DNA from: an uncultured Opitutales bacterium
Lineage (GTDB): Bacteria > Verrucomicrobiota > Verrucomicrobiia > Opitutales > JBHJGM01
Assembly: GCA_964405825.1 (NCBI GenBank)
Contig: CAYOPI010000002.1
Location: forward strand, 32,728 to 96,727
DNA length: 64,000 nucleotides
Direction of reading: 5' to 3'
This document shows, piece after piece, positions 509 through 63,674 of the stretch; position 1 is the stretch's first letter, and each line of letters starts with the position of its first letter. A model generated the notes under the pieces. That model ran no database searches. It had not been told where the DNA came from and saw only the letters and a program-made list of their open reading frames with translations. Both the position numbers and the translations under genes were made by a program.

Positions 509-1021
509 TCAGAGGGAAAGGTTCTCGCCGAGAATGATCTTCTCGATGTCCAGAAGCGTCTTCACCTTCCCCTCGACCTTGGCGATGCCGAGGATGAACT
601 GGCTGTCGACGCGCCCGCCCAGATCGGGCTTCTCCTCGATTTGCTCGGCCGAGATGTTGAGGACCTCCTCAACGGCGTCGACGATCAGGCCGACGAGCAC
701 CTGGCCGCGGTCGGCACTCTGCACCTGCACAACAATAATGCACGTGCGGTCGTCGACCTGTTCGTGGCCGAGGCAGAACTTCACCCGCATGTCGATGACG
801 GGGATGACCTTTCCGCGCAGATTGAGCACGCCCTTGATGTAGTCGGGCACCTGCGGGACGGTGGTGATCTGCTGGTGCTGGATGATCTCCTTGATACGCA
901 GGACAGCGAGCCCGTAGGTCTCGGCCCCGAGCGTGAAGGTGAGGTATTTTTCGGAGACCGAGACGGTCGTCTTGGCGGTCGCAGGTTTGGCAGCGGTTTC
1001 AGTCACGGAGGGTGCAGTCAT
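509..1021 (-). CDS. cheW: chemotaxis coupling protein CheW
   Basis: 170 aa. CheW-like domain signature: YLTFTLGAETYGLAVLRIKEII...VPQVPDYIKGVLNLRGKVIPVIDMRVKF...IIVVQV...GLIVDAVEEVL. Confidence 0.9.
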   Translation of the reverse strand: MTAPSVTETAAKPATAKTTVSVSEKYLTFTLGAETYGLAVLRIKEIIQHQQITTVPQVPDYIKGVLNLRGKVIPVIDMRVKFCLGHEQVDDRTCIIVVQVQSADRGQVLVGLIVDAVEEVLNISAEQIEEKPDLGGRVDSQFILGIAKVEGKVKTLLDIEKIILGENLSL

Positions 1022-1087
1022 AGCAATCGATGGTCGGGATGCGGGCCGGGTGCAGGCATATACCCGCGGGCGGATTTCCGTGGGGTC

Positions 1088-1114
1088 TCATCGGTCGATG
1101 GAAAGGCGCCTTAA
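1088..1114 (-). promoter_or_regulatory. candidate sigma-28 (FliA) promoter for cheW
   Basis: The minus strand reads TTAAGGCG-N11-ACCGATGA against the consensus TAAAGTTT-N11-GCCGATAA. The -10 matches 6/8 with the CCGAT core intact; the -35 matches 4/8. It lies about 60-90 nt upstream of the cheW ATG (1021). fliA is present in the window. Confidence 0.3.
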
Positions 1115-1192: not shown

Positions 1193-1399
1193 ATGAAATC
1201 ACAGCCTCCATCGGCCGGAGCCTCGCCCAAACCATTTCTGGGCGTGTACTTTGCCGATTGCGGGGTCTACGGTCGACTGTACCGCCTGCAGGACGGCAGC
1301 GCCTACCAGGGGAAATGCCCCGCCTGCGGCCACAACTGCCGCGTGCGCGTTGGCCCGAGCGGAAGCACGCAGCGCTTTTTCATCGCCCACTGCCGCTGA
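1193..1399 (+). CDS. small Cys-rich (zinc-ribbon-like) hypothetical protein
   Basis: ORF track 1190..1399 (TTG then ATG; ATG at 1193 preferred). The sequence contains ...FADCG...GKCPACGHNCRV...AHCR (five Cys including a CPxC). Third positions are mostly G/C, and the competing overlapping ORFs look like shadow sequence. No family recognised. Confidence 0.45.
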   Translation: MKSQPPSAGASPKPFLGVYFADCGVYGRLYRLQDGSAYQGKCPACGHNCRVRVGPSGSTQRFFIAHCR

Positions 1400-1414: not shown

Positions 1415-2347
1415 CTACTGCAGCGTGTCGACCAGCAGGGGCAACTTCCCGACGACGCGCTCCAGGCGCATGCGAGCCCGGTCGCCAACGTCGGCATCCG
1501 GGAAGATCACCTCCCAGGGGGGCGCGGAAACCCAGGCATCGGCGGGCGGGATGTCCAACGGCTCGGCCCCGGCCAAACCGCTGCAGCGTACGAGTGTGTC
1601 GGCCAGTTCCAGACAGGCGGAGAACCTGGGGTGTTCGGTGGCCAGGCTTGAGCCTACGTGAAATTCGACCGCGTCGGCCACGTCGGCGTTGACCTGGTGC
1701 CGCTTGAGGTAGAGAGCGCCGATCTGGGCGTGGTCCCAGCCGAGGCGCTCGCGCTCGGCCGCGGCGAAAGTTCCCGGCGAATCCACGGCAGCCGCGGAAA
1801 GGGACTCCGCAAAGACTTCGGGAAGAATCTGCGCCATCACCAGCAAGCCGATGTTGTGCACCAGACCGCTCACGTAGCCCAGATCCTGTTCATCCGAGAA
1901 TCCGGCCAGGGAGTGAATCTCGCGATTGGCGATGGCGACGGCCAGGCTGTGCTCCCAAAAGGCCTGCCAGGTTGCCTGACTGGAGCTGTTTGCGCTGAGC
2001 GAGGCCGCTTCGTCGATGACCGGCAGGCTCAGGGCCAGCTCGCGGATCTGGCGCAGACCCAGGTAAAAAACGGCGTCCTCGATATACTCCACGCGGCGGG
2101 CCAGGCCAAAGAAGGCCGAGTTGACCATCTTCAGAACGCGGGCGGCGAGGCTGGGGTCGCGCTCGACGACTTCGGCGATCTCGGAGGCGGTGGTGGCCTC
2201 ATCGCTGAGGCGCTCGCGCAGGGACTCGCCGATGCGGCGCAGGGACGGCAGTTCGGGGCAGTCGTCAATGAGCGCGCGCAGCTCGTCCGGGGGCAGGCCT
2301 TTCGGCGTGTCCGAATCGGGCCGAGGCTTTTTGCGCGAAACGAGCAT
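1415..2347 (-). CDS. stand-alone HDOD domain protein
   Basis: 310 aa. HDOD-type pattern: ASEIAEVVERDPSLAARVLKMVNSAFFGLARRVEYIEDAVFYLGLRQIRELALSL...WEHSLAVAIA...GLVHNIGLLVM...ERERLGWDHAQIGALYLKRH. Confidence 0.85.
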   Translation of the reverse strand: MLVSRKKPRPDSDTPKGLPPDELRALIDDCPELPSLRRIGESLRERLSDEATTASEIAEVVERDPSLAARVLKMVNSAFFGLARRVEYIEDAVFYLGLRQIRELALSLPVIDEAASLSANSSSQATWQAFWEHSLAVAIANREIHSLAGFSDEQDLGYVSGLVHNIGLLVMAQILPEVFAESLSAAAVDSPGTFAAAERERLGWDHAQIGALYLKRHQVNADVADAVEFHVGSSLATEHPRFSACLELADTLVRCSGLAGAEPLDIPPADAWVSAPPWEVIFPDADVGDRARMRLERVVGKLPLLVDTLQ

Positions 2348-2364
2348 CGTTGGAAAGCATCCTC

Positions 2365-3219
2365 TTAGGATTGACCCTGGGCCTTGATCAGGCCTTTCAC
2401 GTCGTCGAGTCGATCGACGACCTGGATGACGACCTGCTGAATCGAATCGGACGTTTGCCGGGCACGCTTGAGGGCGCTTTCGTCGAGGTGGAAGGCCCAG
2501 GCGTCGCGCCCGTGGTTGGCGCCGATGAGGGCCGCGGCGTAAACGGCTGCATGTAACACCGATGTCATCCCCTGATGGCCGCTGGCAGAAGCGGGCACGT
2601 ACTGGTGCTCGATCGGCAGGCAGGCTTCCTCGGGAAACTTCCAGTGCTTGAGCAGGGCCGCCGAAGCCGCGGCGTGATCGAAGCCGAGGACTTCACGTTC
2701 GGCCTCGAGCATGGTGAGCCCCTCAGTCTCGATCTTCTCGTACACCGACTCGTAAAGATCCGCACCGAGCTGGTTGATGGCCATCTTTCCGATGCAGTGC
2801 ATCAGGCCCACGGTGTAAGCCAGCGAGGAAGCCTCTCCGGCCATCCCGGCAATGTTTTCAGCCGCCAGGGCGGTTGCCAGGGAGTGCTCCCAGAGCTGTC
2901 CCTCCGCCAGCAGGTAGGCATCGAGGCCCCCGCCGCCGATGAGCTTCTTGCATAGAATAAGGCTGACCAGTTTGTACAGTTCGCGGAAGCCCAGGCGGTT
3001 GACGGCTTCCTCCAGATCGGTGCTGGAGCTGGAAAAGCCGTAGTAGGCGCTGTTGCTGAGGGCGAGCACCTGGGTGGTGAGGGCAGGGTCGAGTTTGACC
3101 AGTTCGACGATGTCCCAGGCGTTGGCGTCGTCGCTTTCGAGGACAGTGAGCAGCCGGGGCAACACCTGCGGACTGGGCAGGAGCCGTTCGGTCTGAGCGA
3201 TGAGTTCGTCGAGCGTCAT
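2365..3219 (-). CDS. stand-alone HDOD domain protein
   Basis: An internal start in ORF 2365..4140 at MTLDELIAQTERLLPSPQVLPRLLTVLESDDANAWDIVELVKLDPALTTQVLALSNSAYYGF... gives 284 aa. The ATG (3219..3217) overlaps the cheD stop (3218..3216) as ATGA. Further motifs: WEHSLATALAAE, GLMHCIGKMAI, REVLGFDHAAASAALLKHW. Confidence 0.85.
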   Translation of the reverse strand: MTLDELIAQTERLLPSPQVLPRLLTVLESDDANAWDIVELVKLDPALTTQVLALSNSAYYGFSSSSTDLEEAVNRLGFRELYKLVSLILCKKLIGGGGLDAYLLAEGQLWEHSLATALAAENIAGMAGEASSLAYTVGLMHCIGKMAINQLGADLYESVYEKIETEGLTMLEAEREVLGFDHAAASAALLKHWKFPEEACLPIEHQYVPASASGHQGMTSVLHAAVYAAALIGANHGRDAWAFHLDESALKRARQTSDSIQQVVIQVVDRLDDVKGLIKAQGQS

Positions 3220-3737
3220 GCCATCTCCAGGTAGCGGCTGCCCGAGGGCTGCTTGATTTCCAGGGTGCCCGTGGACAGCGTCAGGTGCAGCGTACGGTTG
3301 GTGGTGCCACCGACATCCTCGGCGATCGCCCGCAGGCCCGCGCCATTGAGGATCGACCGCACGGCAGCCACGTTGCGTTCGCCAATCTTGAAACTGTCGC
3401 TGCCGCTGAGCACGGCCGCCCCGCCCGCCAGCACAATCTTCTGGTTGCGGGTGTTCGCGCCGAGGCCCTGCAGGTCGCGAAAGAAGACCCGCAGCCCGGT
3501 GTCGGCAAACATGGCTGGCTGGTTGCGGGCCTTTTCGGGCGAGAGTTTGGACTCCGGCAGCATCACGTGGAGGATGCCGCCCACCCCGGTGCCTTTGTCG
3601 AAAGTAGCCACCGCCACGCACGAGCCCAACGCATAGGTGCTGACCGTTGCCGTGGCGTTGTTGGAGACGGCCTGATCGCCCACGCCAACCACTACACGCT
3701 GCGTAAAAATGCCGCCAATCGAAGGTGCGCCGCCCAC
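3216..3737 (-). CDS. cheD: chemoreceptor glutamine deamidase CheD
   Basis: 173 aa. CheD pattern: TYALGSCVAVATFD...GGILHVMLPES...FADTGLRVFFRDLQGLGA...KIVLAGGAAVL...IGERNVAAVRSILNGAGLRAIAEDVGG. Confidence 0.9.
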   Translation of the reverse strand: MGGAPSIGGIFTQRVVVGVGDQAVSNNATATVSTYALGSCVAVATFDKGTGVGGILHVMLPESKLSPEKARNQPAMFADTGLRVFFRDLQGLGANTRNQKIVLAGGAAVLSGSDSFKIGERNVAAVRSILNGAGLRAIAEDVGGTTNRTLHLTLSTGTLEIKQPSGSRYLEMA

Positions 3738-3788
3738 TGACTGCTTTCCCCTGAAGATTCTCCCCTGTGCCAGCCCCGTCGCCCCGCG

Positions 3789-5792
3789 TCAGTCCACGTA
3801 GGGTTCGCAGAGGATGGTATCGAGTTCGGCGAAGCGCTGGCGCTGTCGCGAGAGCGACTCGATGGTCAGGGAGCGTTTGTTCTCGAGGTTGGTCAGCTTC
3901 ATGTTGAGCAAGCGTTGATTGGAGTCGCTGGGTGGCTTGGGTTTGGGCGCAGCCTTGGTCTTGACGGCGGTCATGGTGACCTTGCGCGGCTTGGGCCGTC
4001 GGGTTTGCGGCAGGGTGAGGCCGCCGCCCACGAACATCACTCCCAGCGCACAATACGTCATGGAGAACTGATCGGTAAAAAGGATCCCCATATAAAGAAA
4101 GAATATGCCCAAAACCGTGGCGAAGAAGCCGGCCACGCACAAACCCGTGAAAGCGCCGCCGGATTTGTTGTCGTGGGAGAACTGCACTTTCACCTTGGGC
4201 GCCTGCTCGGCCTTTTCATCGTAGCGGCGGACGCGGTCGTCCTTCTTCATCGTGCCCAGCTCGGTGCTGATCTCATCGAGGGTCTTTTCATCGCGTTTGA
4301 TCTGCTCCTCGACCTCGTGCATTTCACGCAGGACGCAATCGCGGCACTCCTCCCAGGCGGTCCGAATCTTGCGGCTGAGTTCCCGCTCCTGCGGGTGCGG
4401 CACCAGCGCGTTGTATTCGCGGAACTGGCCCCGGAAGCTGTCGGCCACGGCCACGTTGCTGTCGGTCTCAAAGAAGTACTCCGGGTTATCCTGAGTGAAG
4501 GCGCGAATGGTGCGGCTGTCCCCGGGGAGGAGTTTCTCGACAAGCTTGTGGTTGAAAAAGCGAAAGCGTGAGAGCAGCGAAAGGACCTCCAGATCCGAGC
4601 CGCTGCCCACCATCTGGAACAGGTCGGTGCAGATGCGGGCGCGCTGGTGCAGGTGCTCGAAGTCTTCGGGCCGTCGAATCTCATGCCAGGCGCGCAGGGC
4701 CTCGGCCACTTCCACGCTGACCTGAAAGCCGCCATTGATCGGCGACAGCCCCAGTTCGAGGCGAAGCTTGAGGTAGGCAAAGGCGGCGTCGCCCTCGGCC
4801 TTGCCGCTGAAGAAACGCAGGAAGTCCCGGTTGAACCAACGTACGTGGGCAGCCCAGAGCATCCAGCCGATCTCCTCCTCGTTCTTGCCCTTGAAGATGC
4901 CCTCGACGTGGTCGACGTCACTTTCCACCTGCTCGGAGCGGCGTTGATTGAGGATGGCCTGCAGCTTACCGGGGTTACCCTGGGTGTCCTGCCAAAGGCA
5001 GTCAACGTCCAGCCCGGTGATGCTGGCCTCCTCGATGAAGCCGGCGACCTCCTCGCGGGTGAAGGGTTTCAGTTCGATCGTCTCGCCGGACTCGGCCAGG
5101 CCCAGCCAGACGTCGGCGAAGCTGGCCGTCTCCGCCGGGAGCTTCTCCAGGCAGGCGAAAAAGTGAGTCGCGCAGACCTCGTTGAACTCGGCCATGACCG
5201 GGCCCATCCACTCGTTGAGCCAGCGCTCGAGCGGGGAAGTCCAATGCTCGAAATCGTCGACGAACCAGAGCATGCGTACCTGCGAGGGCAGCTCGTCGGT
5301 GTCGGTGTCGGCGTCGTCGCGCTCGGTGATGAAGCGGTGCAGTTCCCGGGTCCACCACTCGGCGATTTCAGCCTCCAGACGGTCGGATGCGAAAGGGATG
5401 TTGGTGCCGTGATCGAGGCGGGCCAAACGCTGGTTGAAGGCGTGGCGAAACTGCGTCAGTCGTGCCTGCAAGGCCGGATGGCTGGCGCGCAGCACGGGAG
5501 TGATACTCTCCAGCCAGGCCCGAACGCCGCCGTCCTCCGCGGGTACCGGCAGCCGCACGCAAACGGCCGGAATCTGCAGGTCGACAAAACGCTGCCAGGC
5601 CGCATCGAGGAAGGTGCTCTTGCCGATGGACCGCGGCCCGACGACACACGTGACCGGCGGGGTCGTGGCCGGCTGCGCGCCGTGCCCGACCTCTTTCATG
5701 AGGCGGTCGAGTTCCGCCTGTCGTCCGATCAGTTTCTGGGGCATGTCGTGGGGGGACTCAACGGATGTAAAATCGTCCGTTGATCCGCCCAA
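3789..5792 (-). CDS. P-loop NTPase (AAA_16/Arch_ATPase/STAND-like N-terminus) with C-terminal coiled coils and a two-helix membrane hairpin
   Basis: 667 aa. LIGRQAELDRL precedes a Walker A, VVGPRSIGKST (aa 52-59, nt 5616..5639). A Walker-B-like MLWFVDDFEHW follows, then a long helical middle region. Two hydrophobic helices lie at aa 545-596 (GGAFTGLCVAGFFATVLGIFFLYMGILF...YCALGVMFVGGGLTL, nt 4005..4160), flanked by charged, coiled-coil-like segments. The start could also be MPQKLIGRQ (aa 17). Confidence 0.8.
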   Translation of the reverse strand: MGGSTDDFTSVESPHDMPQKLIGRQAELDRLMKEVGHGAQPATTPPVTCVVGPRSIGKSTFLDAAWQRFVDLQIPAVCVRLPVPAEDGGVRAWLESITPVLRASHPALQARLTQFRHAFNQRLARLDHGTNIPFASDRLEAEIAEWWTRELHRFITERDDADTDTDELPSQVRMLWFVDDFEHWTSPLERWLNEWMGPVMAEFNEVCATHFFACLEKLPAETASFADVWLGLAESGETIELKPFTREEVAGFIEEASITGLDVDCLWQDTQGNPGKLQAILNQRRSEQVESDVDHVEGIFKGKNEEEIGWMLWAAHVRWFNRDFLRFFSGKAEGDAAFAYLKLRLELGLSPINGGFQVSVEVAEALRAWHEIRRPEDFEHLHQRARICTDLFQMVGSGSDLEVLSLLSRFRFFNHKLVEKLLPGDSRTIRAFTQDNPEYFFETDSNVAVADSFRGQFREYNALVPHPQERELSRKIRTAWEECRDCVLREMHEVEEQIKRDEKTLDEISTELGTMKKDDRVRRYDEKAEQAPKVKVQFSHDNKSGGAFTGLCVAGFFATVLGIFFLYMGILFTDQFSMTYCALGVMFVGGGLTLPQTRRPKPRKVTMTAVKTKAAPKPKPPSDSNQRLLNMKLTNLENKRSLTIESLSRQRQRFAELDTILCEPYVD

Positions 5793-5876
5793 CTGAAGCG
5801 CAACCTACTCGAAACGAAGCGCTTGGAGACGGTGCCACCTATCCTGGCGACCGCTTGACCGGACTTGCCCCGCCGG

Positions 5877-7550
5877 TCAGTTCTTCCAGTCACTGCCCAC
5901 CACAAACTCGTCGTTGGACTGCCGGGGCGAAAGGGAAAGGTCGTTGCTGGACGGTACCGGCGCGCCGGGTTGCAGGCTGAAGCCGGCGGGGTCGCCGCCG
6001 CCGGCAGCGATGACCTTCGGCTCCTGGGCCTGGCCGCCGCCGTTCATGATGCCAACGAGTCCGGTAACCACACCGCGCAGCGACTCGATTTGAGCCTCCA
6101 GTTCGGAACAGGCCGAAGCGGTTTCCTCGGCGTTGGCGGCGTTGGTCTGGGTGGCACCGTCGACCTGGGCAACGGCCTGGACGACCTCGCGCAGACCGTT
6201 GGACTGCTCGTCGCTGGCCTGCGTGACGGAGGTCACGAACTCGTTGACGGTGGCGACGGTTTCCACGATGCGCTCGATCTTCTCGCGCACGTTCGTGCAA
6301 AGGCTCACGCCGTGTTCGCTGCGGGCGCTGGCTTCGGTGAGCAGCGAGGAGGTGTCCTGAGCGGCCTGGGCCGAGCGTTGCGCCAGAGCGCGAACCTCGT
6401 CGGCCACAACCGAGAATCCGGCACCGGCTTCACCGGCCCGGGCGGCTTCAACGGCGGCGTTGAGGGCGAGGATGTTTGTCTGGAAGGCGATCTCGTCGAT
6501 CGTCTTCATGGTCTTGGCGATCTGGTCGCTGAAGTCCTTGATGGCGACCATTGCCTCGCTCATCTCCTCCATGCCGCTGGAGCCTTCGCGGGCGACGTTG
6601 CTGGCCTGTTCGGCCAGTTCAAGGGCCTTGCGCGCGCTCTCGCTATTGCGGCCGGCCAGTCCGGAAATCTCGTCCACCGAGGCGCGGGTTTCTTCCAAAG
6701 CGGCCGCCTGTTCCGAACAGCTGTTGGCGAGCGAGGAACTGGCGCTGGAAATCTCCGAGGTGGCCGCGTGGGATTGATCCGAAGCGCTGTTGAGGTCCTC
6801 GATGGCGCGTCCGAGCGGCAGGGTGACGGCCCTGCGCACGAGCAGGAAGAGCCCACCGCAGATGAGCACCACCACCGGAATGGCCCACAGCAGGACCTTC
6901 CACATGCCGGCCTCGGCCACGGTGTCGATTCGTTCAAGGTCGCTGGTCAGGATGAAAGCACCACGCATGTCGCCGACCTCCCAGTTCTCCATGGCAAAGC
7001 CGAGGATGTCCTTGCCGTCGCCGGTCGGGCTGGTCGCCGGGTCACCGTGGCAGAAAAGGCAGTCCTGAGTGATGAAGACCGGGCGCGCGTAGGTGACGGC
7101 GTTGATGTCGTCGCGTTCGATGAAAATCTCCTTCTCGCCCTGCTCGAAGCGTTGCAGCAGCTCCGCCTCAAAGGCGTCGGGGCGGTTGTCATGATTGCGC
7201 GGGCTCTCGCGGACCACGCGGAAATTGAAGTCCTCCTCTTCGGCGACTTTTTCGAGCCCGCGCCACGCCGCCACCACGGGGACGGTGTTGTAGAAGCTCG
7301 TGGAGCGGTAGTCGCCGTTGGCCTGGTCGAGTTCCTTGGAGAGGTGCTCGATATCGAAAGCCTTGGCCTGGGCCAGTTCGGAGAAAGAATCGCGGACGGA
7401 CTCGGCCTCGATCAGTACCGAGCGCATCTGGTTGTGGAGCTGGTCGACGCCCAGGCCGTGGATGACGTTGCTCTGAACGACGAGGGCAACAGTGGTGGTG
7501 AGGGCGACCGCGCCCACGGCGCTGGCGATAATCTTGGTACCCAGGTTCAT
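5877..7550 (-). CDS. methyl-accepting chemotaxis protein with CxxCH-containing periplasmic domain
   Basis: 557 aa. TM1 is [19 protein letters not shown] and TM2 is [20 protein letters not shown]. The MCP signalling hairpin reads [38 protein letters not shown]. The periplasmic part contains [16 protein letters not shown], with the CLFCH codons at 7047..7061. Confidence 0.9.
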
Positions 7551-7761
7551 AGCAATGCAGTCAGGTCGGATTCAGGGGCCGGGAGAGCACAGAGACAGCC
7601 TCACCGGGCACGCTCTTACATCGACTGAACAAGCACTCGCCTTATCAAAGGCCGGGTAAAAAGTTTGCTAAGCGTCCGCATTAGCCTTACTAATGGGCCA
7701 ATCGGAAGCCAACTACCCTAAAACCTTGGGCCGCAGGCTCTCAGGGCAAATCCGCGAAGGC

Positions 7762-7998
7762 TCAACCCTGACGGCGCGCCCCGACGGCACGACGCGGAAA
7801 GCGTCCCTGGCGGGTGGACTCGACCGCCTCCTCGTTGCTCTGGCGAACCGAGTCGTACAGCTCCTTGCGGTAGACGGAGATCTCGCGAGGGGCCTTGATG
7901 CCGATCTTCACGACGTCGCCCTCCACCTTGGTGATTTGAATCTCGATGCGCCCGTCGATGACGATGGCTTCCTCGACTTTGCGTGAGAGCACGAGCAT
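7762..7998 (-). CDS. csrA: carbon storage regulator CsrA
   Basis: 78 aa. [48 protein letters not shown], followed by a roughly 30-aa C-terminal extension. It lies immediately downstream of fliW. Confidence 0.9.
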
Positions 7999-9484: not shown

Positions 9485-10909
9485 TTACCGCTTCAGGTTG
9501 ACGACGGTTTCCAGCAGGCTGTCGATGACCGAGATGACGCGGGCGGAGGCCTGGAAAGCCCGCTGGTACTTTACCAGATTGGCAACCTCCTCATCCATCG
9601 AGACGCCCGAAATCGAATCGCGCTGGGTGCGCACTTCGGCGGTAACGAGGCTCTGGGTCTCCAGCTGGTTCTGCGCGCTGAGGGTGGCGGAGCCGACCTC
9701 GGCCGCGATGTGCGAGGCATACTCGCCAAAGCGTCCGGTGAAGGATGGACCGGTGGCGGGCGCAAAGGTGACCTCAAGCTCAGTGAGCCTGGCGGTATCC
9801 AGAATGAGGGTGGCGTCGCTGGCGTCGCCGCTGGTGCTGGTGCGAAAGTTCGTGGCCAGGTCGCTGTCGAGGGCGATGTTCTGGGCGGTCACCCCGGCAA
9901 AGCTGAAGAAGTCGTAGTCCGGGTCGGCCCCCGGGTTGTAGGTGGCGTTGACCCGCGCAACGAGTTCGGCGGCGAGTTCGTCAAGCTGGGCGGCGGTCTC
10001 GGCCGCCTGCCCGTTGATCACGCGACCCGTACCGAGGATGCTGCCACGCGTCAGGGCGACGTTCTGCCCGCCAAGCTGGTAGGTGCCCACGTTGACGAAG
10101 GTGAGCGTGTCGACGACGTCCTGCCCGTCAACCGCCACCAGATCGGCGCCGGTACCGACCTGGGTCAGGACCACCTGCATGTCGCCGTCGCTGCCGACGG
10201 TCTTGAAGTCGACCAGTCCGGCGAGTTCCTCCAGGGCGGCCTGGCGTTTGTCACGCAGGTCCACGGCGGACTCGGGCTGGTGCAGTTCGAAGCGCTTGAT
10301 CTGGCGGTTGAGGTTGGCGATCTCGCCGAAGATCGCGTTGACGCGATTCACGTCGTTCTGGATCACCGTGGTGGCGTCGGCGATGGCCTGGTCGATGCGC
10401 GCGTCGGCCGAGCGGAACTCGTCGACCAGCGCCTGGGACTTCTCAAGCAAGAGGCTCTGCTGCACCGGGTCGGTCGGATTGGCCGCGACCTCGTCCAGGG
10501 CGTTGAAAAAGCGGTTGATCGCACCGGTCAGGCCCGGGCTGAGGGCCGACTCGCTGGTGCCGTCGACGGTGCTGGTGGCGTCGGAGCGATCGATCAGCTC
10601 GCCCAGAGCGGTCTCCAACTGGCGGGCAGTGTCGTACTCGGCCTGCAAGGCGCTTTCCAGGCCGATCTCGCGCAGGAGCGCGGCATCCAGCAGGCGGTCG
10701 CGGCTGTGAGAAAGTCCCTCGACGGTCAGGCCCATGCTCATCGAGCCGAACTCGGTCTGGACTGAGCCCAGGTTGGTGATGTTGGGCCGCTGACGGGCGT
10801 ACTCGGGATTGTTGACGTTGGCCAGGTTCTTGCCCGTCACTTCCGCGCCCAGGCTATGGACCTGCAAGGCGCGGGCGTTGGTGCTTAAGGCTGAAAAGAG
10901 TCCGGACAT
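9485..10909 (-). CDS. flgK: flagellar hook-associated protein 1 FlgK
   Basis: 474 aa. N-terminus: LQVHSLGAEVTGKNLANVNNPEYARQRP. C-terminus: GVSMDEEVANLVKYQRAFQASARVISVIDSLLETVVNL. Confidence 0.9.
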   Translation of the reverse strand: MSGLFSALSTNARALQVHSLGAEVTGKNLANVNNPEYARQRPNITNLGSVQTEFGSMSMGLTVEGLSHSRDRLLDAALLREIGLESALQAEYDTARQLETALGELIDRSDATSTVDGTSESALSPGLTGAINRFFNALDEVAANPTDPVQQSLLLEKSQALVDEFRSADARIDQAIADATTVIQNDVNRVNAIFGEIANLNRQIKRFELHQPESAVDLRDKRQAALEELAGLVDFKTVGSDGDMQVVLTQVGTGADLVAVDGQDVVDTLTFVNVGTYQLGGQNVALTRGSILGTGRVINGQAAETAAQLDELAAELVARVNATYNPGADPDYDFFSFAGVTAQNIALDSDLATNFRTSTSGDASDATLILDTARLTELEVTFAPATGPSFTGRFGEYASHIAAEVGSATLSAQNQLETQSLVTAEVRTQRDSISGVSMDEEVANLVKYQRAFQASARVISVIDSLLETVVNLKR

Positions 10910-18174: not shown

Positions 18175-18993
18175 CTACTTGTTAATCATCCGCTTCAAAT
18201 AGCCCCGCAGCCCGACGATCGCCTGTGAGTGAATCTGGCAGATGCGCGATTCGGTCAGGTTGAAAACAGCGGCGATTTCGGCCAGGCGCATGCCCTGCAG
18301 GTAGTACATCGTCAGCACGCGGCGGGGCGTGTCGGGAAGCTCCTTGAGGCGCTCGCGCAGCAGCTCCAGCATCTCGTTGTCCTCGGCCACGTCGCGCCCG
18401 TTCATCTGGGTGGCGTCGGAAATGGCGTCGTGCAGCGAGGGCGACTCGGGATCGTCGGAAGCCGGCGCGGAGTCCAGCGGGACCATGTAAATCGACCGGC
18501 GCTGCTCGCGCATGCGCTCGTGCTGCTCCTTGGTCAGGCCCAGCTCCTTGCAGATCTCCTCGTCGCTGGCCTCGCGGTTGAGGCGCTGTTCGAGTTCCTC
18601 GACGGCCTTGCGATACTTCTTGGCGTTGATGCGGTCGATCCGCGGCATCCAGTCGATGCGGCGCAGCTCATCCAGCAAGGCACCTCGCACGCGCAGCGAA
18701 GCGTAGTTGCCGAAGGAGTGCCCCTTCTTCGGATCGAAGTTGCGCGAGGCAGTGATCAGCCCGCTGACGCCGACCGAGTAGATGTCCTCCGGGTCGATGT
18801 GCGAGGGGAAGTAGATGCGCATGCGCGACACGATCGACTTGACCAGCGGCAGGTAGCTTTCGACGAGATCCCAGCGGGGCTCGCGCTTTTCCTTGGCCTG
18901 CTTGTCGTAGGCCTTCGCGGCCTGGCGGCTGCGCCCCGTATCCGGGGACGGCGGCTGCGCCGGGGGCGCCTTTTTTTCGGTAGTCGTAGCCAT
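18175..18993 (-). CDS. fliA: RNA polymerase sigma-28 factor FliA
   Basis: 272 aa. Region 2: DIYSVGVSGLITASRNFDPKKGHSFGNYASLRVRGALLDELRRIDW. Region 4: RRVLTMYYLQGMRLAEIAAVFNLTESRICQIHSQAI. Confidence 0.9.
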   Translation of the reverse strand: MATTTEKKAPPAQPPSPDTGRSRQAAKAYDKQAKEKREPRWDLVESYLPLVKSIVSRMRIYFPSHIDPEDIYSVGVSGLITASRNFDPKKGHSFGNYASLRVRGALLDELRRIDWMPRIDRINAKKYRKAVEELEQRLNREASDEEICKELGLTKEQHERMREQRRSIYMVPLDSAPASDDPESPSLHDAISDATQMNGRDVAEDNEMLELLRERLKELPDTPRRVLTMYYLQGMRLAEIAAVFNLTESRICQIHSQAIVGLRGYLKRMINK

Positions 18994-19042: not shown

Positions 19043-19459
19043 TCAGGCCTCGGCGGTAGCGGGCTGAGGCTCGTTGGAAGTGGATTTCTCGCCCGGGCCG
19101 GCTTCCGCGTTTTCGTTCGAGCCCTCTCCGGGGCGGAGCCGGCTGGCCACCTGTCCGAGAGCTTCGGCGGCGGCACGTTCGGCCGCGGCGGCTTCTTCCT
19201 CAGCGGCCCGTTCGGCTTCCTCGCGAGCCTGGCGCATGCGCTCACGGTACTTGCGCTCAAGCACGGCCTGCATGTTGTGCAGCACGACAATCATCGCGCC
19301 CTTGCACATGAAAAACCCGATGAGGCAGCCGATGGAGCCGTTGCGCAGCGCCGCGATGGCTTCGCCGCCACCAACCATGGTGCCGAAGAAGCTGACCATG
19401 AATCCGGCGAATCCGCCCATGGCCAAAAGGAACTTGCCTTCGCGTACGACGATTTTCAT
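19043..19459 (-). CDS. hypothetical small membrane protein (two TM helices plus Glu/Ala-rich tail) in the flhF-fliA gap
   Basis: 138 aa. FLLAMGGFAGFMVSFFGTMV and IGCLIGFFMCKGAMIVVL are followed by ERKYRERMRQAREEAERAAEEEAAAAERAAAE and a Pro/Glu/Asn-rich end. It has no P-loop. It starts 18 nt after flhF and ends 49 nt before fliA. Confidence 0.6.
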   Translation of the reverse strand: MKIVVREGKFLLAMGGFAGFMVSFFGTMVGGGEAIAALRNGSIGCLIGFFMCKGAMIVVLHNMQAVLERKYRERMRQAREEAERAAEEEAAAAERAAAEALGQVASRLRPGEGSNENAEAGPGEKSTSNEPQPATAEA

Positions 19460-19477: not shown

Positions 19478-20701
19478 CTATCGGCCTCCGAGAGATGGCA
19501 GGGCGCGCTCCATCATGAAGCCGAAGACATCGCGGGCGCATTCGCCGCTGATGCCCGGACCTTCGCTGAAAAAGAGCGTGGGTAAACCCGAACGCAGCAG
19601 GCAGGGCCACAGGCGGTTGGGTTGGCTGAGTTCGTCCAGGTGAGAAAAGACCAGGTGCGTTGCGCCGATCTGGTGGCCCTGCTGGACGGCCTCCTTCAGC
19701 AGCTGCAGGTCGTAGGCGGCGTTGAGCACCAGCACCCGCGTGTCGACGTACTCGCCGTCCAGACGCTCGCGGGCGGCTTGCCAGCCGGCGGTGTCGCGCA
19801 GGGTCAAACCGGGCAGATCAAAGAAGACGATACCGGCCTCCGAGATGGCTTCCTGCGAATCGGTTTCGCGCATCAGGGGAAGGCCCAGCACATCGCAGTA
19901 CGTACGCAGGGCGTCGTCGGGGTTGGGCTCATCGTGGTCGAGCTTGACCACGCTGACATCCTCGGTCCGGTCGATGAAAACCTCCTGGGCCAGTTGCTTG
20001 CACAACGCCGTCGTCTTGCCCACCCCTGGCGTACCCAAAAAAGCGATACGCCGCCCCAGCGAAGGCACCTCAATCTCGCGAAGCTGCTGACCCAGCCATT
20101 GGAAGACTTCGGCCAGCGCCTGTTCGCGGGGCAAGCTGCAAAGGCGGGGCCACTCGGGCGAATCCTCCAGGCGCGAAAGCAGCCCGTCGTCGAACTGGGC
20201 CTTGCGCAGGAGTTCGGTCAGCGCGTTGACCGGACGCGACTGGGCGATGGGCTCACGCAGAATCGGCGAGGGCGCGGGCTGGGCTTCAGCCTTGTCTCGA
20301 ATCGCTTCATCCATGGGCGGGCGGGCAGATTCCGCAAAGGCGCGCTCGAGCTTCGCGGCGCTGACGGGCTTGCGAGCAAAGGCAACGCCGGAGTCAGGGT
20401 TCTCAGCCGGGACACGGCTCCGCGGCGCCTCGGGCTCTGTTGCCGGGAGACTTTCTTCAGCCCCGGGCTCGGATGGAGCATCCTCAGCTGCCTCCGCCGG
20501 GATGGTGGCGATAACCTCGAGCTTGGGACTGCTCAGGAAGCGCGTCAGACCGCGGCCATCGATCTGCTTGACCGTCAGCACGCGTGCCTTGGGGCCGAGG
20601 TTCTCGCGAATCAGCGTGACGGCTTCCTCAGCCGAGCTGACGATGAAGCGAAACTTGCGGCCGATAAGCGTTTCGGTGGGCTGGTCCTTGAGGGAGGTCA
20701 T
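19478..20701 (-). CDS. flhF: flagellar SRP-type GTPase FlhF
   Basis: 407 aa. The N-terminal B-domain reads RFIVSSAEEAVTLIRENLG. The G1 motif is AFLGTPGVGKTT, followed by DLPG and SHLDE-type G motifs. It lies directly after flhA. Confidence 0.9.
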   Translation of the reverse strand: MTSLKDQPTETLIGRKFRFIVSSAEEAVTLIRENLGPKARVLTVKQIDGRGLTRFLSSPKLEVIATIPAEAAEDAPSEPGAEESLPATEPEAPRSRVPAENPDSGVAFARKPVSAAKLERAFAESARPPMDEAIRDKAEAQPAPSPILREPIAQSRPVNALTELLRKAQFDDGLLSRLEDSPEWPRLCSLPREQALAEVFQWLGQQLREIEVPSLGRRIAFLGTPGVGKTTALCKQLAQEVFIDRTEDVSVVKLDHDEPNPDDALRTYCDVLGLPLMRETDSQEAISEAGIVFFDLPGLTLRDTAGWQAARERLDGEYVDTRVLVLNAAYDLQLLKEAVQQGHQIGATHLVFSHLDELSQPNRLWPCLLRSGLPTLFFSEGPGISGECARDVFGFMMERALPSLGGR

Positions 20702-38887: not shown

Positions 38888-39097
38888 CGGGCCGAAGGGC
38901 TTCCTTAACCTCTCTTCATCAATTGCTTAAAAATTTTGACAAGGCCTTTACGACCCACCTTGCCCCTTCGCGGTACATTCTGCCTACAGGATTTCCCCGA
39001 TGGGTGAGTTCACTCTTTGCCGCCCGCCGGCCGGCCCTTTGGTAAAGCCAACTCAATTGCGGACGACCTAACAGTTCCACCCCACTGCGCTCGTTCG

Positions 39098-39943
39098 ATG
39101 ACTACCTTTGCCCAGAACCATCTGCAGACTCAGGCAGAGCTCACCGACCGCGAGTACGAGTACTTCCGCTCGATGATCTACGAGCGCTGCCGTATCAATC
39201 TGGGCTCCAACAAGCGCGAGCTGGTCAAGGCCCGCCTGAACAAGCGCCTGCGCGCGCTGAAGATACCCAGCTTTAGCGGCTACATCGAGCTGCTGCAGAC
39301 CCCCGCCGGCGAGGAGGAATGGACGCACCTGGTCGACTCGATCTCCACCAACTACACCTTCTTCTTCCGCGAGCCGGCGCACTTTGAGTTTCTCTACAAG
39401 CAAGCCCTGCCCGAACTCTCCAGCCCGGGCCGCACCTTCCGCGTCTGGTCGGCCGCCTGCTCCTCCGGCGAGGAGCCCTACTCGGTCGCGATTGTCCTGG
39501 ACGAGTTCTTCAAGAGCGGGGCCGGTGCCTACACCGTGGACTGCACCGATATCTCCACCCGCATCCTGGCCAAGGCCCGCGAAGGCATCTTCGCGCCGCC
39601 GCAGGTTGAGAAGATCCGCCGCGACTGGATGCGCAAACATTTCGAGCAGGGACGCCGCGGCAACGACCAGCTTTACCGGGTCAAGGCCCCGGTGCGCGAG
39701 CGCCTGCGCTTCACCCACCTCAACCTGATGGACCGCAGCTTCCCCTGGCGCGACCCATTCCAGGTCATTTTCTGCCGCAACGTCATGATCTACTTCGACC
39801 GCGGCACCCAGGAGGACCTCGTCCAGCGCATGTCCCAGCATCTGGCCCCTGGCGGTTACCTTTTCATTGGCCACTCGGAAAGTTTGACAGGCGTCAACCA
39901 CGGTCTGAAACTCGTCAAACCATCGATTTACAAAAAAGTGTAA
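39098..39943 (+). CDS. cheR: chemotaxis protein methyltransferase CheR
   Basis: An internal ATG (39098, MTTFAQNHL) in ORF 39017..39943 gives 281 aa. LTDREYEYFRSMIYERCRINLGSNKRELVKARLNKRLR, TNYTFFFREPAHFEFL, RVWSAACSSGEEPYSVAI, IFCRNVMIYFD. Confidence 0.9.
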   Translation: MTTFAQNHLQTQAELTDREYEYFRSMIYERCRINLGSNKRELVKARLNKRLRALKIPSFSGYIELLQTPAGEEEWTHLVDSISTNYTFFFREPAHFEFLYKQALPELSSPGRTFRVWSAACSSGEEPYSVAIVLDEFFKSGAGAYTVDCTDISTRILAKAREGIFAPPQVEKIRRDWMRKHFEQGRRGNDQLYRVKAPVRERLRFTHLNLMDRSFPWRDPFQVIFCRNVMIYFDRGTQEDLVQRMSQHLAPGGYLFIGHSESLTGVNHGLKLVKPSIYKKV

Positions 39944-39969
39944 ATCGCCGATTCGGTACAGGGGAAAGT

Positions 39970-41058
39970 ATGGGGGATAAGGGCCCAGTCCGGGTGCTCG
40001 TCGTGGATGATTCCGCGGTCGTGCGCCGCCAGATTTTGCGGTTTCTGAAGCAGGACCCGGAGATTCAGGTCGTTGGTGACGCGGCCGACCCCTACGAGGC
40101 CCGCGACCTGATCCTCAAGCTCAAGCCCGATGTCCTGACCCTCGACATCGAGATGCCCAAGATGGACGGGCTGACCTTCCTGGGCATCCTGATGAAGCAG
40201 CGGCCGCTGCCCGTGGTGGTGGTCAGCTCGGTCAGCACGCGCGGCTCCAGCGTCGCCCTGGAGGCTCTCAACCGGGGCGCCGTCGAAGTGCTCGGCAAGC
40301 CCAATTCCTCCACCGACATCGGCCACCTCGGCCCGCTCCTGGCCCAGAAGGTGAAGGCGGCCGCCCGCTGCCGTCTGCAGACGCACCTTTCGGCCACCCG
40401 AGCGCCGTTTGTTCGCCGACCCGTTTCGGCGCACCCTTTCCAGCAGCACCCTGGCGGCACGGACCCGCGTGCGCTCGTCCTGCTGGGCGCCTCCACCGGG
40501 GGCACCGAAGCGGTCAAGGCGGTCATGGCCGACCTGCCCGCGACCATGCCCGGCATCCTCATCGTCCAGCACATCCCGGCCTTCTTCAGCAAGGCCTGGG
40601 CCGAGCGCATGGACCAGATGAGCGCCCTTGAGATTCGTGAAGCCGTCGATGGTGATCGCACCCGGCCGGGCCTCGCCCTGGTGGCACCGGGCGACCAGCA
40701 CATGACCGTCTCCTGGGTCGGCGGCGCTTACCGTGTGCAACTCAACCAGGGCCCGCCCGTCTGGCATCAGCGTCCTGCGGTCGACGTCCTCTTCCGCTCG
40801 GCCGTCGCTGCCAAGGCCGCCTCGCACGCCACGGCCGCGGTCTTCACCGGCATGGGCCGCGACGGCGCCGAAGGCCTGTTGGAACTGCGCAAGGGCGGAG
40901 CCCGCACCTTCACCCAGTCGGAGGACTCCTGCGTGGTCTACGGCATGCCCAAAGCCGCCGACGAGCTGGGCGCCTCTCAAAAGTCGGTTCACCTCAGCCA
41001 GATGGCCCGCGTCCTGCGCGACGCCGTCCACCAGCGCCAGCCCGCCCCGACCCCCTGA
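39970..41058 (+). CDS. cheB: chemotaxis response regulator protein-glutamate methylesterase CheB
   Basis: 362 aa. REC domain: VRVLVVDDSAVVRR...PDVLTLDIEMPKMDG. Esterase domain: LLGASTGGTEAV...IVQHIPAFFS...RPAVDVLF...TGMGRDGAEGL. Confidence 0.95.
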   Translation: MGDKGPVRVLVVDDSAVVRRQILRFLKQDPEIQVVGDAADPYEARDLILKLKPDVLTLDIEMPKMDGLTFLGILMKQRPLPVVVVSSVSTRGSSVALEALNRGAVEVLGKPNSSTDIGHLGPLLAQKVKAAARCRLQTHLSATRAPFVRRPVSAHPFQQHPGGTDPRALVLLGASTGGTEAVKAVMADLPATMPGILIVQHIPAFFSKAWAERMDQMSALEIREAVDGDRTRPGLALVAPGDQHMTVSWVGGAYRVQLNQGPPVWHQRPAVDVLFRSAVAAKAASHATAAVFTGMGRDGAEGLLELRKGGARTFTQSEDSCVVYGMPKAADELGASQKSVHLSQMARVLRDAVHQRQPAPTP

Positions 41059-41074
41059 TGCACTTTTCGCTACC

Positions 41075-42994
41075 ATGGATTCGTCTGCTTCCCTGCTGCG
41101 CGAGCGTTCCCACACCTCGCCCGCTTCCCTCGATCCGGCCTGCACCCCGCTGCCGGTTTTTTTATCTTCCGACGGCCTGATACGTCAGGCGCCGAACGGC
41201 CCTCGGGCGCTTCCCTGGTTTGGACGGGAAGCCCCCGTTGCGGGCGTCCACCTGATCGAGGCCCTCAACGCCGCTGGCTGGAAATCCGATCACGCCGCCG
41301 ACGCTCCCTCATCGGGTTTGCTCCAACCCGGCCAGACCCTGCGCCTGCGGCACACCGCGAACACCGACACCGAGGGCACCCTGACCTGTTTCGCCTGTGA
41401 GGACGGACTGCTGGCCACGCTCAACCCGGAGAGCCCCGTCCCGGACGCACCTGCAAACGTCGGGCACCTGCTGGCGATGTGCCCAAGTGTCCATTTCCGC
41501 CAGGACCTCGAACTGCGCTTCCTCTGGCTGGGACCGGGAGCGGAGTCACTCTTTGGCGTGCCCGAAGCCGTACTGAGCAAGACCGCCAACGCCTTCCTTC
41601 AGCAGGTGCTCGAAACCGACCACCGCAGTTACCTCCAGCTCAGCCAGAAATCGCTCTGTCCCGGCAGCATCGAGCGCCTGGACGTGCGCATCCGCCATGG
41701 ACGCAACGGCCAGGTGCGTTACCTCCGCGATGAGCGCCGTCTGAAGGCCGACCCGGTCAACGGCAATCTCTTCTGGGAAGGGGTGCTCTGGGATGTCTCC
41801 CGTCAGACGATCGCTGAAAAGCATCTGCGCCGCACCGCCTGGAAGGAGCACCTGGCCACCCTCACCAGCGGCCTCGTCCACGACTTCTCAAACGTCATGG
41901 CCGGCATCTACGGACTGGCCGACCTCTACCACCAGGACCTCGACGAGAACCACCCCTGGCAGAAAGGCATCGGCCAAATCCGCAAGAGTTCCGCCGAGGC
42001 CCGCAAGCTGGTCCGGCGCATCGTGGACCTCAACCGCGAGCAGGAAACCGCGCCGAACTACCACAACCTCGAGCACCTCATTCAGGAGCAACTCGAACTC
42101 GCACCGGCCATCCTCCCCAAGGGCACGCGCATCGATACCGACTTCACCGGCCAGGAAATCCCCGTTTACCTGGACGCCGTCACCTTCCGGCAGGTCTTCC
42201 TGAACTTCCTCGTCAACTCGCGCGACGCCCTCTCGACCAAGGGTGAGGTGCGCGTCTCGGTGCGACCGGTGCAGGGCGACGCCATCATCCTGGAAGACTG
42301 CTACGGCTGCGGAGGCCTGCGGGCCGAGCGCGAAGGCGTTCAGATCGAGGTTGCCGACAACGGCTGCGGTATTCCCGAAGTGCACCTGGCCCGCATCTTC
42401 GACCCGTACTTTACCACCAAGGACACGACCCAGGGCTCGGGCTTCGGCCTCTACAACGCCCGCCTCTTCGCGGAGGAAAATCAGGGTCATCTGGGTGTGC
42501 GCAGCCGCCCCGGCGAAGGCTGCACAATGGTTCTTTTTCTGCCGCTGGCCACCTTCACCGAGCAAAGCGAGGAACCCCGGGACGAACCACCCGCGCCCCT
42601 GCACGTCAACGGCGACACCCGCCACCGCGTCCTGGTCTTCGCCGCCGACAAGAGCCGCGAGTGCAACCTCATCGACCTGATGCACGCGCGCCAGTGGGAG
42701 GTGCTCACCCTCAGCCGGGCTCAGGCCCTCCGCGACCACCTCTGCGATGACCGCCAGCCCCCGCCCGACCTCGTCGCGCTGATCGACCTGGAGCAGGACG
42801 TGCACGCCAGCGCCCTGACCGAGATGGTCCGCACCCGCTTTCCCGATGTCCCCGTGGCCCTGCGCGTTTTCGGACGCAATCCCGACGAGCTGGCCGCCAA
42901 CCTGCGCGAGCGTGTCACCGCCGTCTTTGACGAAAGCCTGAGGGATACCGAAGTTGTCAAAAAAATGTCATCACTCTTCCAGCCTGTCCGATAA
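41075..42994 (+). CDS. sensor histidine kinase (N-terminal unknown region, PAS, HisKA, HATPase_c) with C-terminal receiver-like domain
   Basis: The start is set at MDSSASLL (41075), after the cheB stop, within ORF 40733..42994; this gives 639 aa. PAS-like: [17 protein letters not shown]...VRYLRDERR...[10 protein letters not shown]-box: [19 protein letters not shown]-binding motifs: [10 protein letters not shown] and VADNGCGIP...[12 protein letters not shown]. The C-terminal roughly 120 aa are REC-like: [11 protein letters not shown]...[11 protein letters not shown]. Confidence 0.85.
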
Positions 42995-43001
42995 CTCAAC
43001 T

Positions 43002-44261: not shown

Positions 44262-44270
44262 ACTTTACCC

Positions 44271-63277: not shown

Positions 63278-63431
63278 AAAACTCCGAACGCTTTTTTTAC
63301 CCCGAGTTCACTCAAGATTGTCCTGTAGGCGGACACGTGTATAGATACTATTTAAGTTCAGAAAACACCTTCCGATTCATCCATGGCGAAGCTTGTGCGG
63401 AAGCGCCCAGTGCGCCTTTCGTCCTGTAACC

Positions 63432-63674
63432 ATGCTGGAGATAAACGCCTACACAAAAACCACTCCGATGCAGAATCCCGCTTACGATGCAGCACTCGCT
63501 GCCCTCGAGCGCATCATCAACGACCCTTCGTTCGGGAGGCTTCACGGCCGCCCGCATGAGTCGCTCAGTCCGGAAGAGCGCAACCTGCTGGCGCGCGCCA
63601 ACGCCCAGGCCGACGAGCTGGCGCGCCTGCGCGCATCCACCCAGCGACAGCGCCTGCCCTACTATCAGGACTGA
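63432..63674 (+). CDS. hypothetical small protein
   Basis: ATG at 63432 (MLEINAYTKTTPMQNPAYDAALAALERIINDPSFGRLHGRPHESLSPEERNLLARANAQADELARLRAS...) within ORF 63393..63674. It is helical with GC3-rich codons. The antisense ORF 63348..63698 looks like shadow sequence. No family recognised. Confidence 0.45.
   Translation: MLEINAYTKTTPMQNPAYDAALAALERIINDPSFGRLHGRPHESLSPEERNLLARANAQADELARLRASTQRQRLPYYQD

Follow-up and report, generated by a model that had tools for sequence, protein, structure and literature searches.

A candidate motility module of a membrane-anchored P-loop NTPase, CheD and HDOD proteins in Opitutales

The locus considered here raises the question of whether five genes at the end of a flagellar cluster form one functional unit and, if so, what this unit does. 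The genes lie in a stretch of 64,000 nucleotides (nt) from an uncultured Opitutales bacterium (contig CAYOPI010000002.1 of GenBank assembly GCA_964405825.1), the whole of which is referred to as the window, and they encode a methyl-accepting chemotaxis protein (MCP), a P-loop protein called here the NTPase, the receptor deamidase homologue CheD and two stand-alone HDOD proteins. The original prediction, made from the sequence alone, was that the five may act as one chemosensory accessory unit, for example in a nucleotide-dependent control of receptor modification or of array placement. The genes, in their order along the minus strand, are as follows (lengths in amino acids, aa):

5877-7550, minus strand: mcp, a 557-aa methyl-accepting chemotaxis protein (Pfam MCPsignal 8e-42, Tll0287-like 5e-27)
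3789-5744, minus strand: NTPase, a 651-aa membrane-anchored STAND/AAA+-like P-loop protein (assigned from an ortholog alignment and an AlphaFold2, AF2, model)
3216-3737, minus strand: cheD, 173 aa (Pfam CheD, PF03975, 4.8e-28, 97.9 bits against a cut-off of 25, profile positions 1-108 of 108)
2365-3219, minus strand: HDOD_B, a 284-aa stand-alone HDOD protein (Pfam HDOD, PF08668, 6.7e-49, about 193 of 196 profile positions)
1415-2347, minus strand: HDOD_A, a 310-aa stand-alone HDOD protein (Pfam HDOD 1.3e-46, about 193 of 196 profile positions)

The first part of the question is answered by gene order. Neighbourhoods of the NTPase gene were taken from 11 lineages; pairwise identity between their NTPases is 15-31%, except for one pair that reaches 42%. 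The neighbourhoods are arranged as follows:

Window, L001 and L003: flgNKL-fliW-csrA-mcp-NTPase-cheD-HDOD_B-HDOD_A-(small ORF)-cheW
L005 (NTPase 27% identical): the order of the window from flgN through HDOD_A, with unrelated genes beyond
L006: gatCAB and a peptidase gene, then NTPase-cheD-HDOD_B, with HDOD_A 5 kb farther
L015-L017 (marine): NTPase-cheD-HDOD_B flanked by opposite-strand housekeeping genes, with HDOD_A 8 kb upstream
L010: NTPase-HDOD_B, after which the contig ends
L011: NTPase-HDOD_A
L018/L019: flgL-flgK-flgN divergent from NTPase-HDOD_A
P0011 contig: three flagellin genes, with the NTPase gene next
L007, L013 and L014: short contigs with uninformative neighbours

An HDOD gene follows the NTPase gene, directly or past cheD, in seven of the 11 lineages; cheD lies within the module in four, and flagellar structural genes adjoin it in four. 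Where cheD and HDOD_B are adjacent (window, L001, L003, L005, L006 and L015), the two open reading frames (ORFs) overlap by 4 nt in every locus. In two lineages (L006 and L015), the trio of NTPase, cheD and HDOD_B is found among unrelated housekeeping genes, with no flagellar gene within 10 kb; the flanks in L015 are a transporter gene on one side and an RNA methyltransferase gene on the other, on the opposite strand. The conserved unit is NTPase-(CheD)-HDOD, and its constant core is the NTPase with an HDOD protein. The check that had been proposed, whether the order is kept in related genomes, therefore has a positive outcome: NTPase-cheD-HDOD_B(-HDOD_A) recurs at 20-27% NTPase identity, and does so in unrelated contexts too. 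The proposal of a five-gene unit holds for this part of the string but not for the receptor: mcp adjoins the NTPase gene in 2 of the 11 lineages, has a putative sigma-28-like promoter of its own and is cut off by a terminator in L003. The MCP is a peripheral neighbour of the module and does not belong to its core.

The NTPase had been predicted as a 667-aa protein starting at TTG 5792. This start is rejected: the NCBI protein P0001 (100% identity) has 651 aa, the N-termini of the three closest orthologs (MPxKLIGR) match ATG 5744, and the TTG falls within a promoter-like motif that is conserved. Otherwise, the five ORFs on the minus strand lie where they had been placed, but the gaps of 84, 51, -4 and 17 nt reported for them need this TTG, and the gap between mcp and the NTPase gene is corrected to 132 nt. 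The C-terminal membrane hairpin ascribed to the longer protein is confirmed by hydropathy and by the model. The parts of the NTPase are:

aa 36-44 (nt 5613-5639, minus strand): Walker A, GPRSIGKST, of the classical form GxxxxGK[ST]
aa 157-166 (nt 5247-5276, minus strand): Walker B, WFVDDFEHW, which fits hhhhD[DE]; with its flank, MLWFVDDFEHW, given as aa 158-168
to about aa 447: helical lid and two winged-helix-like domains, from the model
aa 453-514: long helix
aa 531-577 (nt 4014-4154, minus strand): transmembrane (TM) hairpin, from hydropathy and the AF2 model
aa 607-645: C-terminal helix
nt 3798-3806, minus strand: terminal EPY motif

Basic residues flank the hairpin on both sides and its connecting loop is short and acidic, so that, by the positive-inside rule, both ends of the protein are expected to be cytoplasmic. 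The NTPase would accordingly sit in the inner membrane, with the P-loop and winged-helix head, the C-terminal helix and the EPY tail all facing the cytoplasm. The AF2 model, built from 28 sequences (mean pLDDT, the per-residue confidence score, 83.6), contains five parallel strands in the nucleotide-binding domain (NBD), a helical lid and two winged-helix-like units with beta-hairpin wings. A Foldseek search of this model against the Protein Data Bank (PDB) gave 41 matches at E <= 1e-3, all of them NLR, ORC/Cdc6, RFC, DnaA or Avs proteins; they include Roq1, the RPP1 NB-ARC, Avs3 and Avs4, with a best E of ~1e-5 and TM-scores of about 0.2-0.4. The earlier designation of the protein as STAND/AAA_16-type is borne out for STAND/AAA+ by both Walker motifs, the model and the Foldseek matches, but not for Pfam AAA_16 (PF13191), which scores 29.9 bits, below the gathering threshold of 32.6. 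The model characterizes the NTPase as a STAND/AAA+-like, switch-type P-loop protein without a close characterized relative. It differs from FlhG and ParC, since its Walker A is classical and not the deviant KGGxxGK[ST], and no MinD/ParA protein is among its Foldseek matches.

When 1.84 billion cluster representatives were searched exhaustively with a HMMER profile (E <= 1e-3), 176 clusters at 50% identity were assigned to the NTPase family, about 70 of them full length (590-700 aa). An exact look-up of the window's NTPase, with either start codon, matched no recorded contig. A word-indexed search with the NTPase returned 3 close sequences only, and a word-index profile search with 28 family members gave nothing beyond these three close homologues. 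The NTPase itself has no Pfam match above threshold, no NCBIfam match and 0 PADLOC matches; judged from these sequence models, the family is undescribed. The named relatives are Opitutales metagenome-assembled genomes, and the named members of the family are all Opitutales/Verrucomicrobiota, apart from one cluster labelled both Paceibacterota and Verrucomicrobiota, in which the Paceibacterota label is probably a binning error. With a 10-sequence alignment, the GTDB representatives gave 3 loci and the JGI metagenomes gave none; an alignment of a sub-clade found 2 loci, and no relatives were found in viral contigs. In the conserved architecture, a FIGRxxEL helix at the N-terminus comes before Walker A (GxxGxGK), Walker B (hhhhD(D)[FY]xxW) and a middle region of helices; a long helix then leads to a membrane hairpin of two helices, and a linker rich in K, R and P is followed by a conserved amphipathic helix and the final L-x-EPY. 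The hairpin is present in 67 of 69 full-length members and most members end in L-x-EPY; a sub-group of ~730-aa members ends in LNEPWI. Among the 59 members with a recognisable Walker A motif, the residue after GK is S or T in 42 and R, K, H, D or P in 17. The NTPase has diverged much faster than its neighbours, with 20-27% identity against 53-66% for CheD and the HDOD proteins.

The identity of CheD, as originally predicted, is upheld by the full-length Pfam match and by catalytic motifs as in the Thermotoga maritima structure 2F9Z. The protein aligns with T. maritima CheD (2F9Z_C), with the LGSCVAV and HVMLP motifs kept and the catalytic Cys and His intact, and these catalytic motifs are kept in 6 of 6 orthologs. 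NCBIfam CheD models also match (CheD_Thtga at 3e-37, up to 128 bits), all below their equivalog cut-offs. On these motifs, CheD is classed as a receptor glutamine deamidase homologue with intact catalytic residues. Its identity to the CheD proteins of many Opitutales, Pelagicoccus sp. SDUM812005 among them, is 53-66%, and it is far better conserved than the NTPase. No CheD-HDOD fusion protein was found among the 120 best CheD relatives.

Both HDOD proteins are what they had been taken for, since each matches the HDOD profile over nearly its full length, and their PDB relatives (3M1T, 3HC1, 3P3Q, 9QZK and 1VQR) are all HDOD proteins, of which 3M1T and 3HC1, from structural genomics, resemble both. 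They belong to separate orthogroups that are recognisable across lineages. HDOD_A carries the signature GL[VL]HN[VI]G, with HN for HD, in 8 lineages; the HD dyad of HDOD_B is degenerate, being HC or HA. Against the Pfam HD model, HDOD_A stays below threshold and the score of HDOD_B is marginal, and neither protein has the H...HD...D metal-binding set of catalytic HD phosphohydrolases. Because the Asp of the dyad is replaced in both, catalysis is unlikely. PADLOC gave no match for CheD or HDOD_A, and its weak Cas3-HD similarity for HDOD_B was set aside as the shared HD fold. The start of HDOD_B overlaps the stop of cheD in an ATGA, an arrangement by which the two genes are read as translationally coupled.

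The receptor combines a periplasmic Tll0287-like heme-c sensor with a 36H-like signalling domain. Its description as a CxxCH-motif MCP proved correct, with CLFCH at aa 164 and conservation in 4 orthologs. Each MCP ortholog has two or three methylation-consensus sites; those at aa 282 and 471 are EE in the window and EQ in L003 and L005, which makes a receptor substrate for CheD plausible. The C-terminus (5877-5900, minus strand) reads ...FVVGSDWKN, and the (G)WKN tail is kept in L001 and L003 but not in L005; by analogy with the NWETF pentapeptide, it may be a tethering motif.

Transcription signals were sought by phylogenetic footprinting of the window, L001 and L003. The strict sigma-28-type pattern, TAA[AG]G-N15-16-NCGAT (the FliA, sigma-28, reference type being TAAAG-N15-GCCGATAA), matches the 64-kb window twice when both strands are counted, once ahead of mcp and once ahead of a small ORF; the background is 7 matches in 370 kb. 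The motifs found, together with a hairpin at the mcp stop, are:

7617-7644, minus strand: sigma-28-like motif of mcp, TAAGG-N15-TCGATGTA, in a block conserved in the window, L001 and L003 (TAAGG-N15-[TA]CGATG)
5770-5797, minus strand: NTPase promoter-like motif, TTCAG-N15-GACGATTT, with the same spacing and motif in the window, L001 and L003
1157-1181, plus strand: strict sigma-28-type motif of a 68-aa Cys-rich ORF, in a footprint block
1086-1114, minus strand: sigma-28-like promoter of cheW, TTAAGG-N14-CCGATGA, conserved in the window, L001 and L003
5856-5879, minus strand: GC hairpin overlapping the mcp stop, with a 7-bp stem and no U-tract (-12.4 kcal/mol, z = 0.07 against shuffles)

The cheW block has the consensus CTAAAG or TTAAGG, N14-15, CCGAT[GT]A, with a spacing in the window one base shorter than canonical. 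In the window clade, the NTPase motif (TTCAG-N15-GACGAT) is weak, its -35 being degenerate compared with the mcp and cheW motifs; in L005 (TAAGG-N16-CCGAT) and L007 (TAAAG-N15-ACGAT), strict motifs precede the NTPase start by 23-40 nt. On this evidence, mcp and NTPase-cheD-HDOD_B-HDOD_A appear to be separate units of the late flagellar class, and read-through from mcp into the NTPase gene is possible in the window. In agreement with the earlier statement, no intrinsic terminator was found between the five genes in the window. The GC hairpin after the mcp stop does exist without a U-tract, as had been described, but it folds no better than shuffled sequence and is not conserved in orthologs; it was rejected as a terminator and is probably not functional. 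A strong intrinsic terminator is seen in L003, an ortholog locus with 53% identity (9880-9917, plus strand; a 12-bp stem with 8 GC pairs, then TGCTTTTATA; z = -2.8); it sits between mcp and the NTPase promoter-like motif and is absent from the window and L001. The NTPase leader (5750-5775, minus strand) could itself form a 7-bp hairpin (CAACGGA...TCCGTTG) over the -10-like motif, with a similar one in L001; containing GGA, it could be a candidate CsrA site, csrA being encoded just upstream.

As for what the unit does, we consider it probable that NTPase-(CheD)-HDOD works as a genuine module and that its function is tied to flagellar motility or chemotaxis. It stands repeatedly beside late flagellar genes (flgNKL, fliW-csrA, flagellins), and it spans very divergent lineages of Opitutales and other Verrucomicrobiota. 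The explanation that we favour overall, with a probability of roughly 0.55, is that of a portable motility module in which the NTPase serves as a membrane-tethered switch. In this view, the HDOD proteins would be adaptors, bound by an NTPase that works as a nucleotide-dependent switch or scaffold; by way of these adaptors, the NTPase would hold CheD near the receptors or release it, and so set how much CheD is free for receptor deamidation and activation, a job done by CheC in Bacillus and Thermotoga. Where the module comes without CheD, the NTPase-HDOD pair would act on another motility target. The specific step of CheD sequestration is put forward only tentatively, at a low probability. Equally speculative is the wider idea of a complex of the NTPase, two HDOD proteins and CheD that exerts a CheC-independent, nucleotide-gated control of receptor deamidation and kinase activation, or in which CheD acts on the P-loop switch.

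Several observations weigh against this explanation. Control of CheD cannot be the universal role of the module, because CheD is missing from it in L010, L011 and L018. The short contigs L007, L013 and L014 show no HDOD, cheD or flagellar neighbour, and the P0011 contig has flagellins and no HDOD gene. Nucleotide hydrolysis may not be general in the family, since ~30% of its P-loop members have no Ser or Thr after GK. The receptor-mimic motif of the CheC type, [ASTG]2-x2-[EQ]2-x2-[ASTG]2, was not found in the NTPase or the HDOD proteins (nor is it present in CheD or CheW), and the relaxed promoter motif was defined partly after the NTPase upstream region had been seen.

Among the alternatives, the one that survives best is that the NTPase and its HDOD partners act on the flagellum itself, in late assembly, in control of the filament or flagellin, or in flagellar number or position, while CheD and the MCP are merely co-regulated late genes. 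Members of the family are found beside flgNKL-fliW-csrA (window clade and L005), divergent from flgNKL (L018/L019) and next to three flagellin genes (P0011), HDOD mutants elsewhere alter flagellar synthesis or swimming, and the flagellar cluster of the window has FlhF with no recognisable FlhG between flhF and fliA. We nevertheless regard it as unlikely, as the STAND/AAA+ fold is unlike the MinD/ParA fold of FlhG, and cheD lies inside the module, coupled to HDOD_B, in four lineages, two of which have no flagellar gene within 10 kb.

Inherited synteny without shared function is considerably less probable. Synteny of the window with L001 and L003 extends through all of the 22 kb compared, so that these three loci alone prove nothing. 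However, the trio or pair recurs with all flanks different and with NTPases 20-27% identical, and the 4-nt overlap of cheD and HDOD_B is conserved. Because a genome has at most a handful of HDOD genes and of cheD genes, adjacencies in 7 of 11 and 4 of 11 lineages are far beyond chance; together with flanks that are wholly different between lineages, this disfavours inherited synteny.

We give marginally less credence still to the idea that CheD deamidates a Gln of the adjacent NTPase and thereby locks its nucleotide state, with HDOD_B as the specificity or regulatory partner. CheD has a deamidase fold like that of CNF1, and BLF1, which shares it, targets a RecA-like P-loop protein (PMC8960835); the catalytic residues of CheD are strictly kept, and NTPase-cheD-HDOD_B occurs without a nearby MCP in L006 and L015. 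Yet the level of CheD conservation across Opitutales resembles that of an ordinary, single chemotaxis CheD, the neighbouring MCP orthologs carry EQ pairs, which are normal substrates of CheD and CheB, and no conserved Gln target was identified in the NTPase. An Avs-like anti-phage or stress sensor, with the membrane hairpin as abortive-infection effector and no role in motility, is very improbable: although Avs3, Avs4 and a plant NLR NB-ARC are among the Foldseek matches and TM effectors are common in defence systems, there is no PADLOC match, viral-contig relative, sensor repeat (TPR, WD40, LRR) or defence-island neighbour, and the family, whose motility neighbours and sigma-28-like promoters are conserved, appears to have a vertical distribution within a single phylum.

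The portable-module explanation is also to be seen in its genomic setting. A ~30-kb flagellar cluster on the minus strand (~7.7-38.9 kb) has the string at its 3' end, with the local order flgNKL-fliW-csrA-mcp-NTPase-cheD-HDOD_B-HDOD_A and cheW after it. Flagellar gene names were taken from a Pfam scan of the window ORFs and from the Pfam labels of orthologous loci. Neighbouring genes that are mentioned in the text are:

509-1021, minus strand: cheW, 170 aa (Pfam CheW 2e-36), downstream of the string
7762-7998, minus strand: csrA, just upstream of mcp
18175-18993, minus strand: fliA, in the flagellar cluster
19478-20701, minus strand: flhF, in the flagellar cluster
39017-39943, plus strand: cheR, divergent from the far end of the flagellar cluster

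Upstream beyond csrA are fliW, flgL, flgK, flgN, a rod-binding protein gene, flgI, flgH, flgA and rod genes, and farther upstream are motB, motA, fliA, flhF, flhA, flhB and others. The usual place of flhG is between flhF and fliA; the sole ORF there encodes 138 aa without a Pfam match (19043-19459, minus strand), and none of the window ORFs scanned looked like a MinD-type FlhG. The cheW gene is a neighbour in the window clade only, the DNA downstream of the module in L005, L006 and L015 being without it, and it lies outside the conserved module. As had been stated for cheC, cheA and cheY, the Pfam scan of the window ORFs found none of these genes, nor cheB; the che genes there are cheW, cheR, cheD and mcp, and a core Che operon, in which cheA and cheY are encoded with a receptor, is not among the ORFs scanned. 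GC content across the region is uniform (0.61-0.66). No Rfam riboswitch or leader RNA was found in the window, and a sub-threshold Rfam hit to mir-9058 at 847-942 was discarded as a chance match.

Several further ORFs are of interest. Between HDOD_A and cheW, on the opposite strand, a 68-aa Cys-rich ORF (CPAC...C...C; 1193-1399, plus strand) is kept in L001 and L003; it has a weak Pfam Cys_rich_CPXG match (0.0027) and may be an unrecognised small protein of the flagellar regulon. Another may be encoded by the 80-aa ORF at 63432-63674 (plus strand, no Pfam match), before which a relaxed sigma-28-like motif, TTAAG-N17-CCGATTC, is found (63352-63378, plus strand). At 39017-46667 (plus strand), cheR is followed by three genes, of which the first encodes a 753-aa histidine kinase with HATPase_c as its sole recognised domain, the second an HD-GYP-like protein of receiver-HD_5 architecture and the third a hybrid histidine kinase with a PAS domain; the kinases and the receiver-HD_5 protein may provide a cyclic di-GMP or two-component input to motility.

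HDOD is among the commonest bacterial signalling domains without a mechanism; it is linked to motility, its partner is not known, and the module offers the first candidate partners. Similarly, CheD is understood only alongside CheC, though many bacteria have CheD alone, and the module provides a handle on CheC-less CheD. With CheD and two HDOD orthogroups joined in a conserved operon to a single membrane P-loop switch, both questions become concretely testable; should the proposal be true, stand-alone HDOD proteins would gain their first biochemical partners and a mechanism in motility. Motility is almost unstudied in the phylum Verrucomicrobiota, to whose flagellar and chemotaxis components the NTPase would add a new protein family. 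The original view that the string has no described counterpart stands: the NTPase is without a Pfam, NCBIfam or PADLOC model, and a literature search found no paper that mentions HDOD, CheD and chemotaxis together, and none that links HDOD to STAND or P-loop proteins.

The closest comparison is with the CheC-CheD pair of Bacillus subtilis and T. maritima. In B. subtilis, the CheC-CheD interaction outweighs either enzyme activity (PMC3513319). As in that pair, an intact cheD is coupled here to the gene of a small cytoplasmic partner, amid flagellar and chemotaxis genes; unlike in that pair, cheD is coupled to the gene of an HDOD protein and preceded by that of a membrane-anchored P-loop protein, no CheC/CheX/FliY-type protein was found among the window ORFs scanned and the partners have no receptor-mimic motif. 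Stand-alone HDOD proteins affect swimming in Pseudomonas syringae (PSPTO_4229), P. protegens, Campylobacter jejuni (Cj0248) and Xanthomonas campestris by a mechanism that is not known (PMC11813219, PMC11004494), and SadB is an HDOD-containing adaptor for proteolysis that needs no ligand (PMC12075610). HDOD_A and HDOD_B resemble SadB and the motility proteins (PSPTO_4229, PFL_0554, PFL_5871, Cj0248) in the PF08668 domain, a length of ~270-310 aa, the degenerate HD dyad and the link to swimming. No NTPase or CheD partner has been described for those proteins, whereas here two HDOD orthogroups are genetically tied to one membrane NTPase.

The NTPase shares with the STAND/AAA+ initiator clade (NLR NB-ARC, Avs, MalT, ORC/Cdc6, DnaA) the FIGRxxEL helix, Walker A and B and, in the model, the order of NBD, lid and winged helix, at a weak sequence similarity; in place of sensor repeats, a DNA-binding domain or an effector domain, it has a long helix, a TM hairpin, a helix and the EPY tail. 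Like FlhF/FlhG and Vibrio ParC/ParP, it is a membrane-associated P-loop protein encoded with flagellar or chemotaxis genes, but FlhG and ParC belong to the ATPases of the MinD/ParA type and FlhF to the SRP-type (signal recognition particle) GTPases, whereas the NTPase is AAA+/STAND-like and hairpin-integral and lacks a CheW-like ParP partner. The CheD fold is the deamidase fold of CNF1 and BLF1, which modify Rho GTPases and the P-loop helicase eIF4A, respectively (PMC8960835). Here cheD comes immediately after the gene of a P-loop protein, but CNF1 and BLF1 are secreted toxins with eukaryotic targets, and modification of the NTPase by CheD is purely conjectural. Each component of the module can be placed in a known superfamily, whereas the family of the NTPase is undescribed, as is the combination itself.

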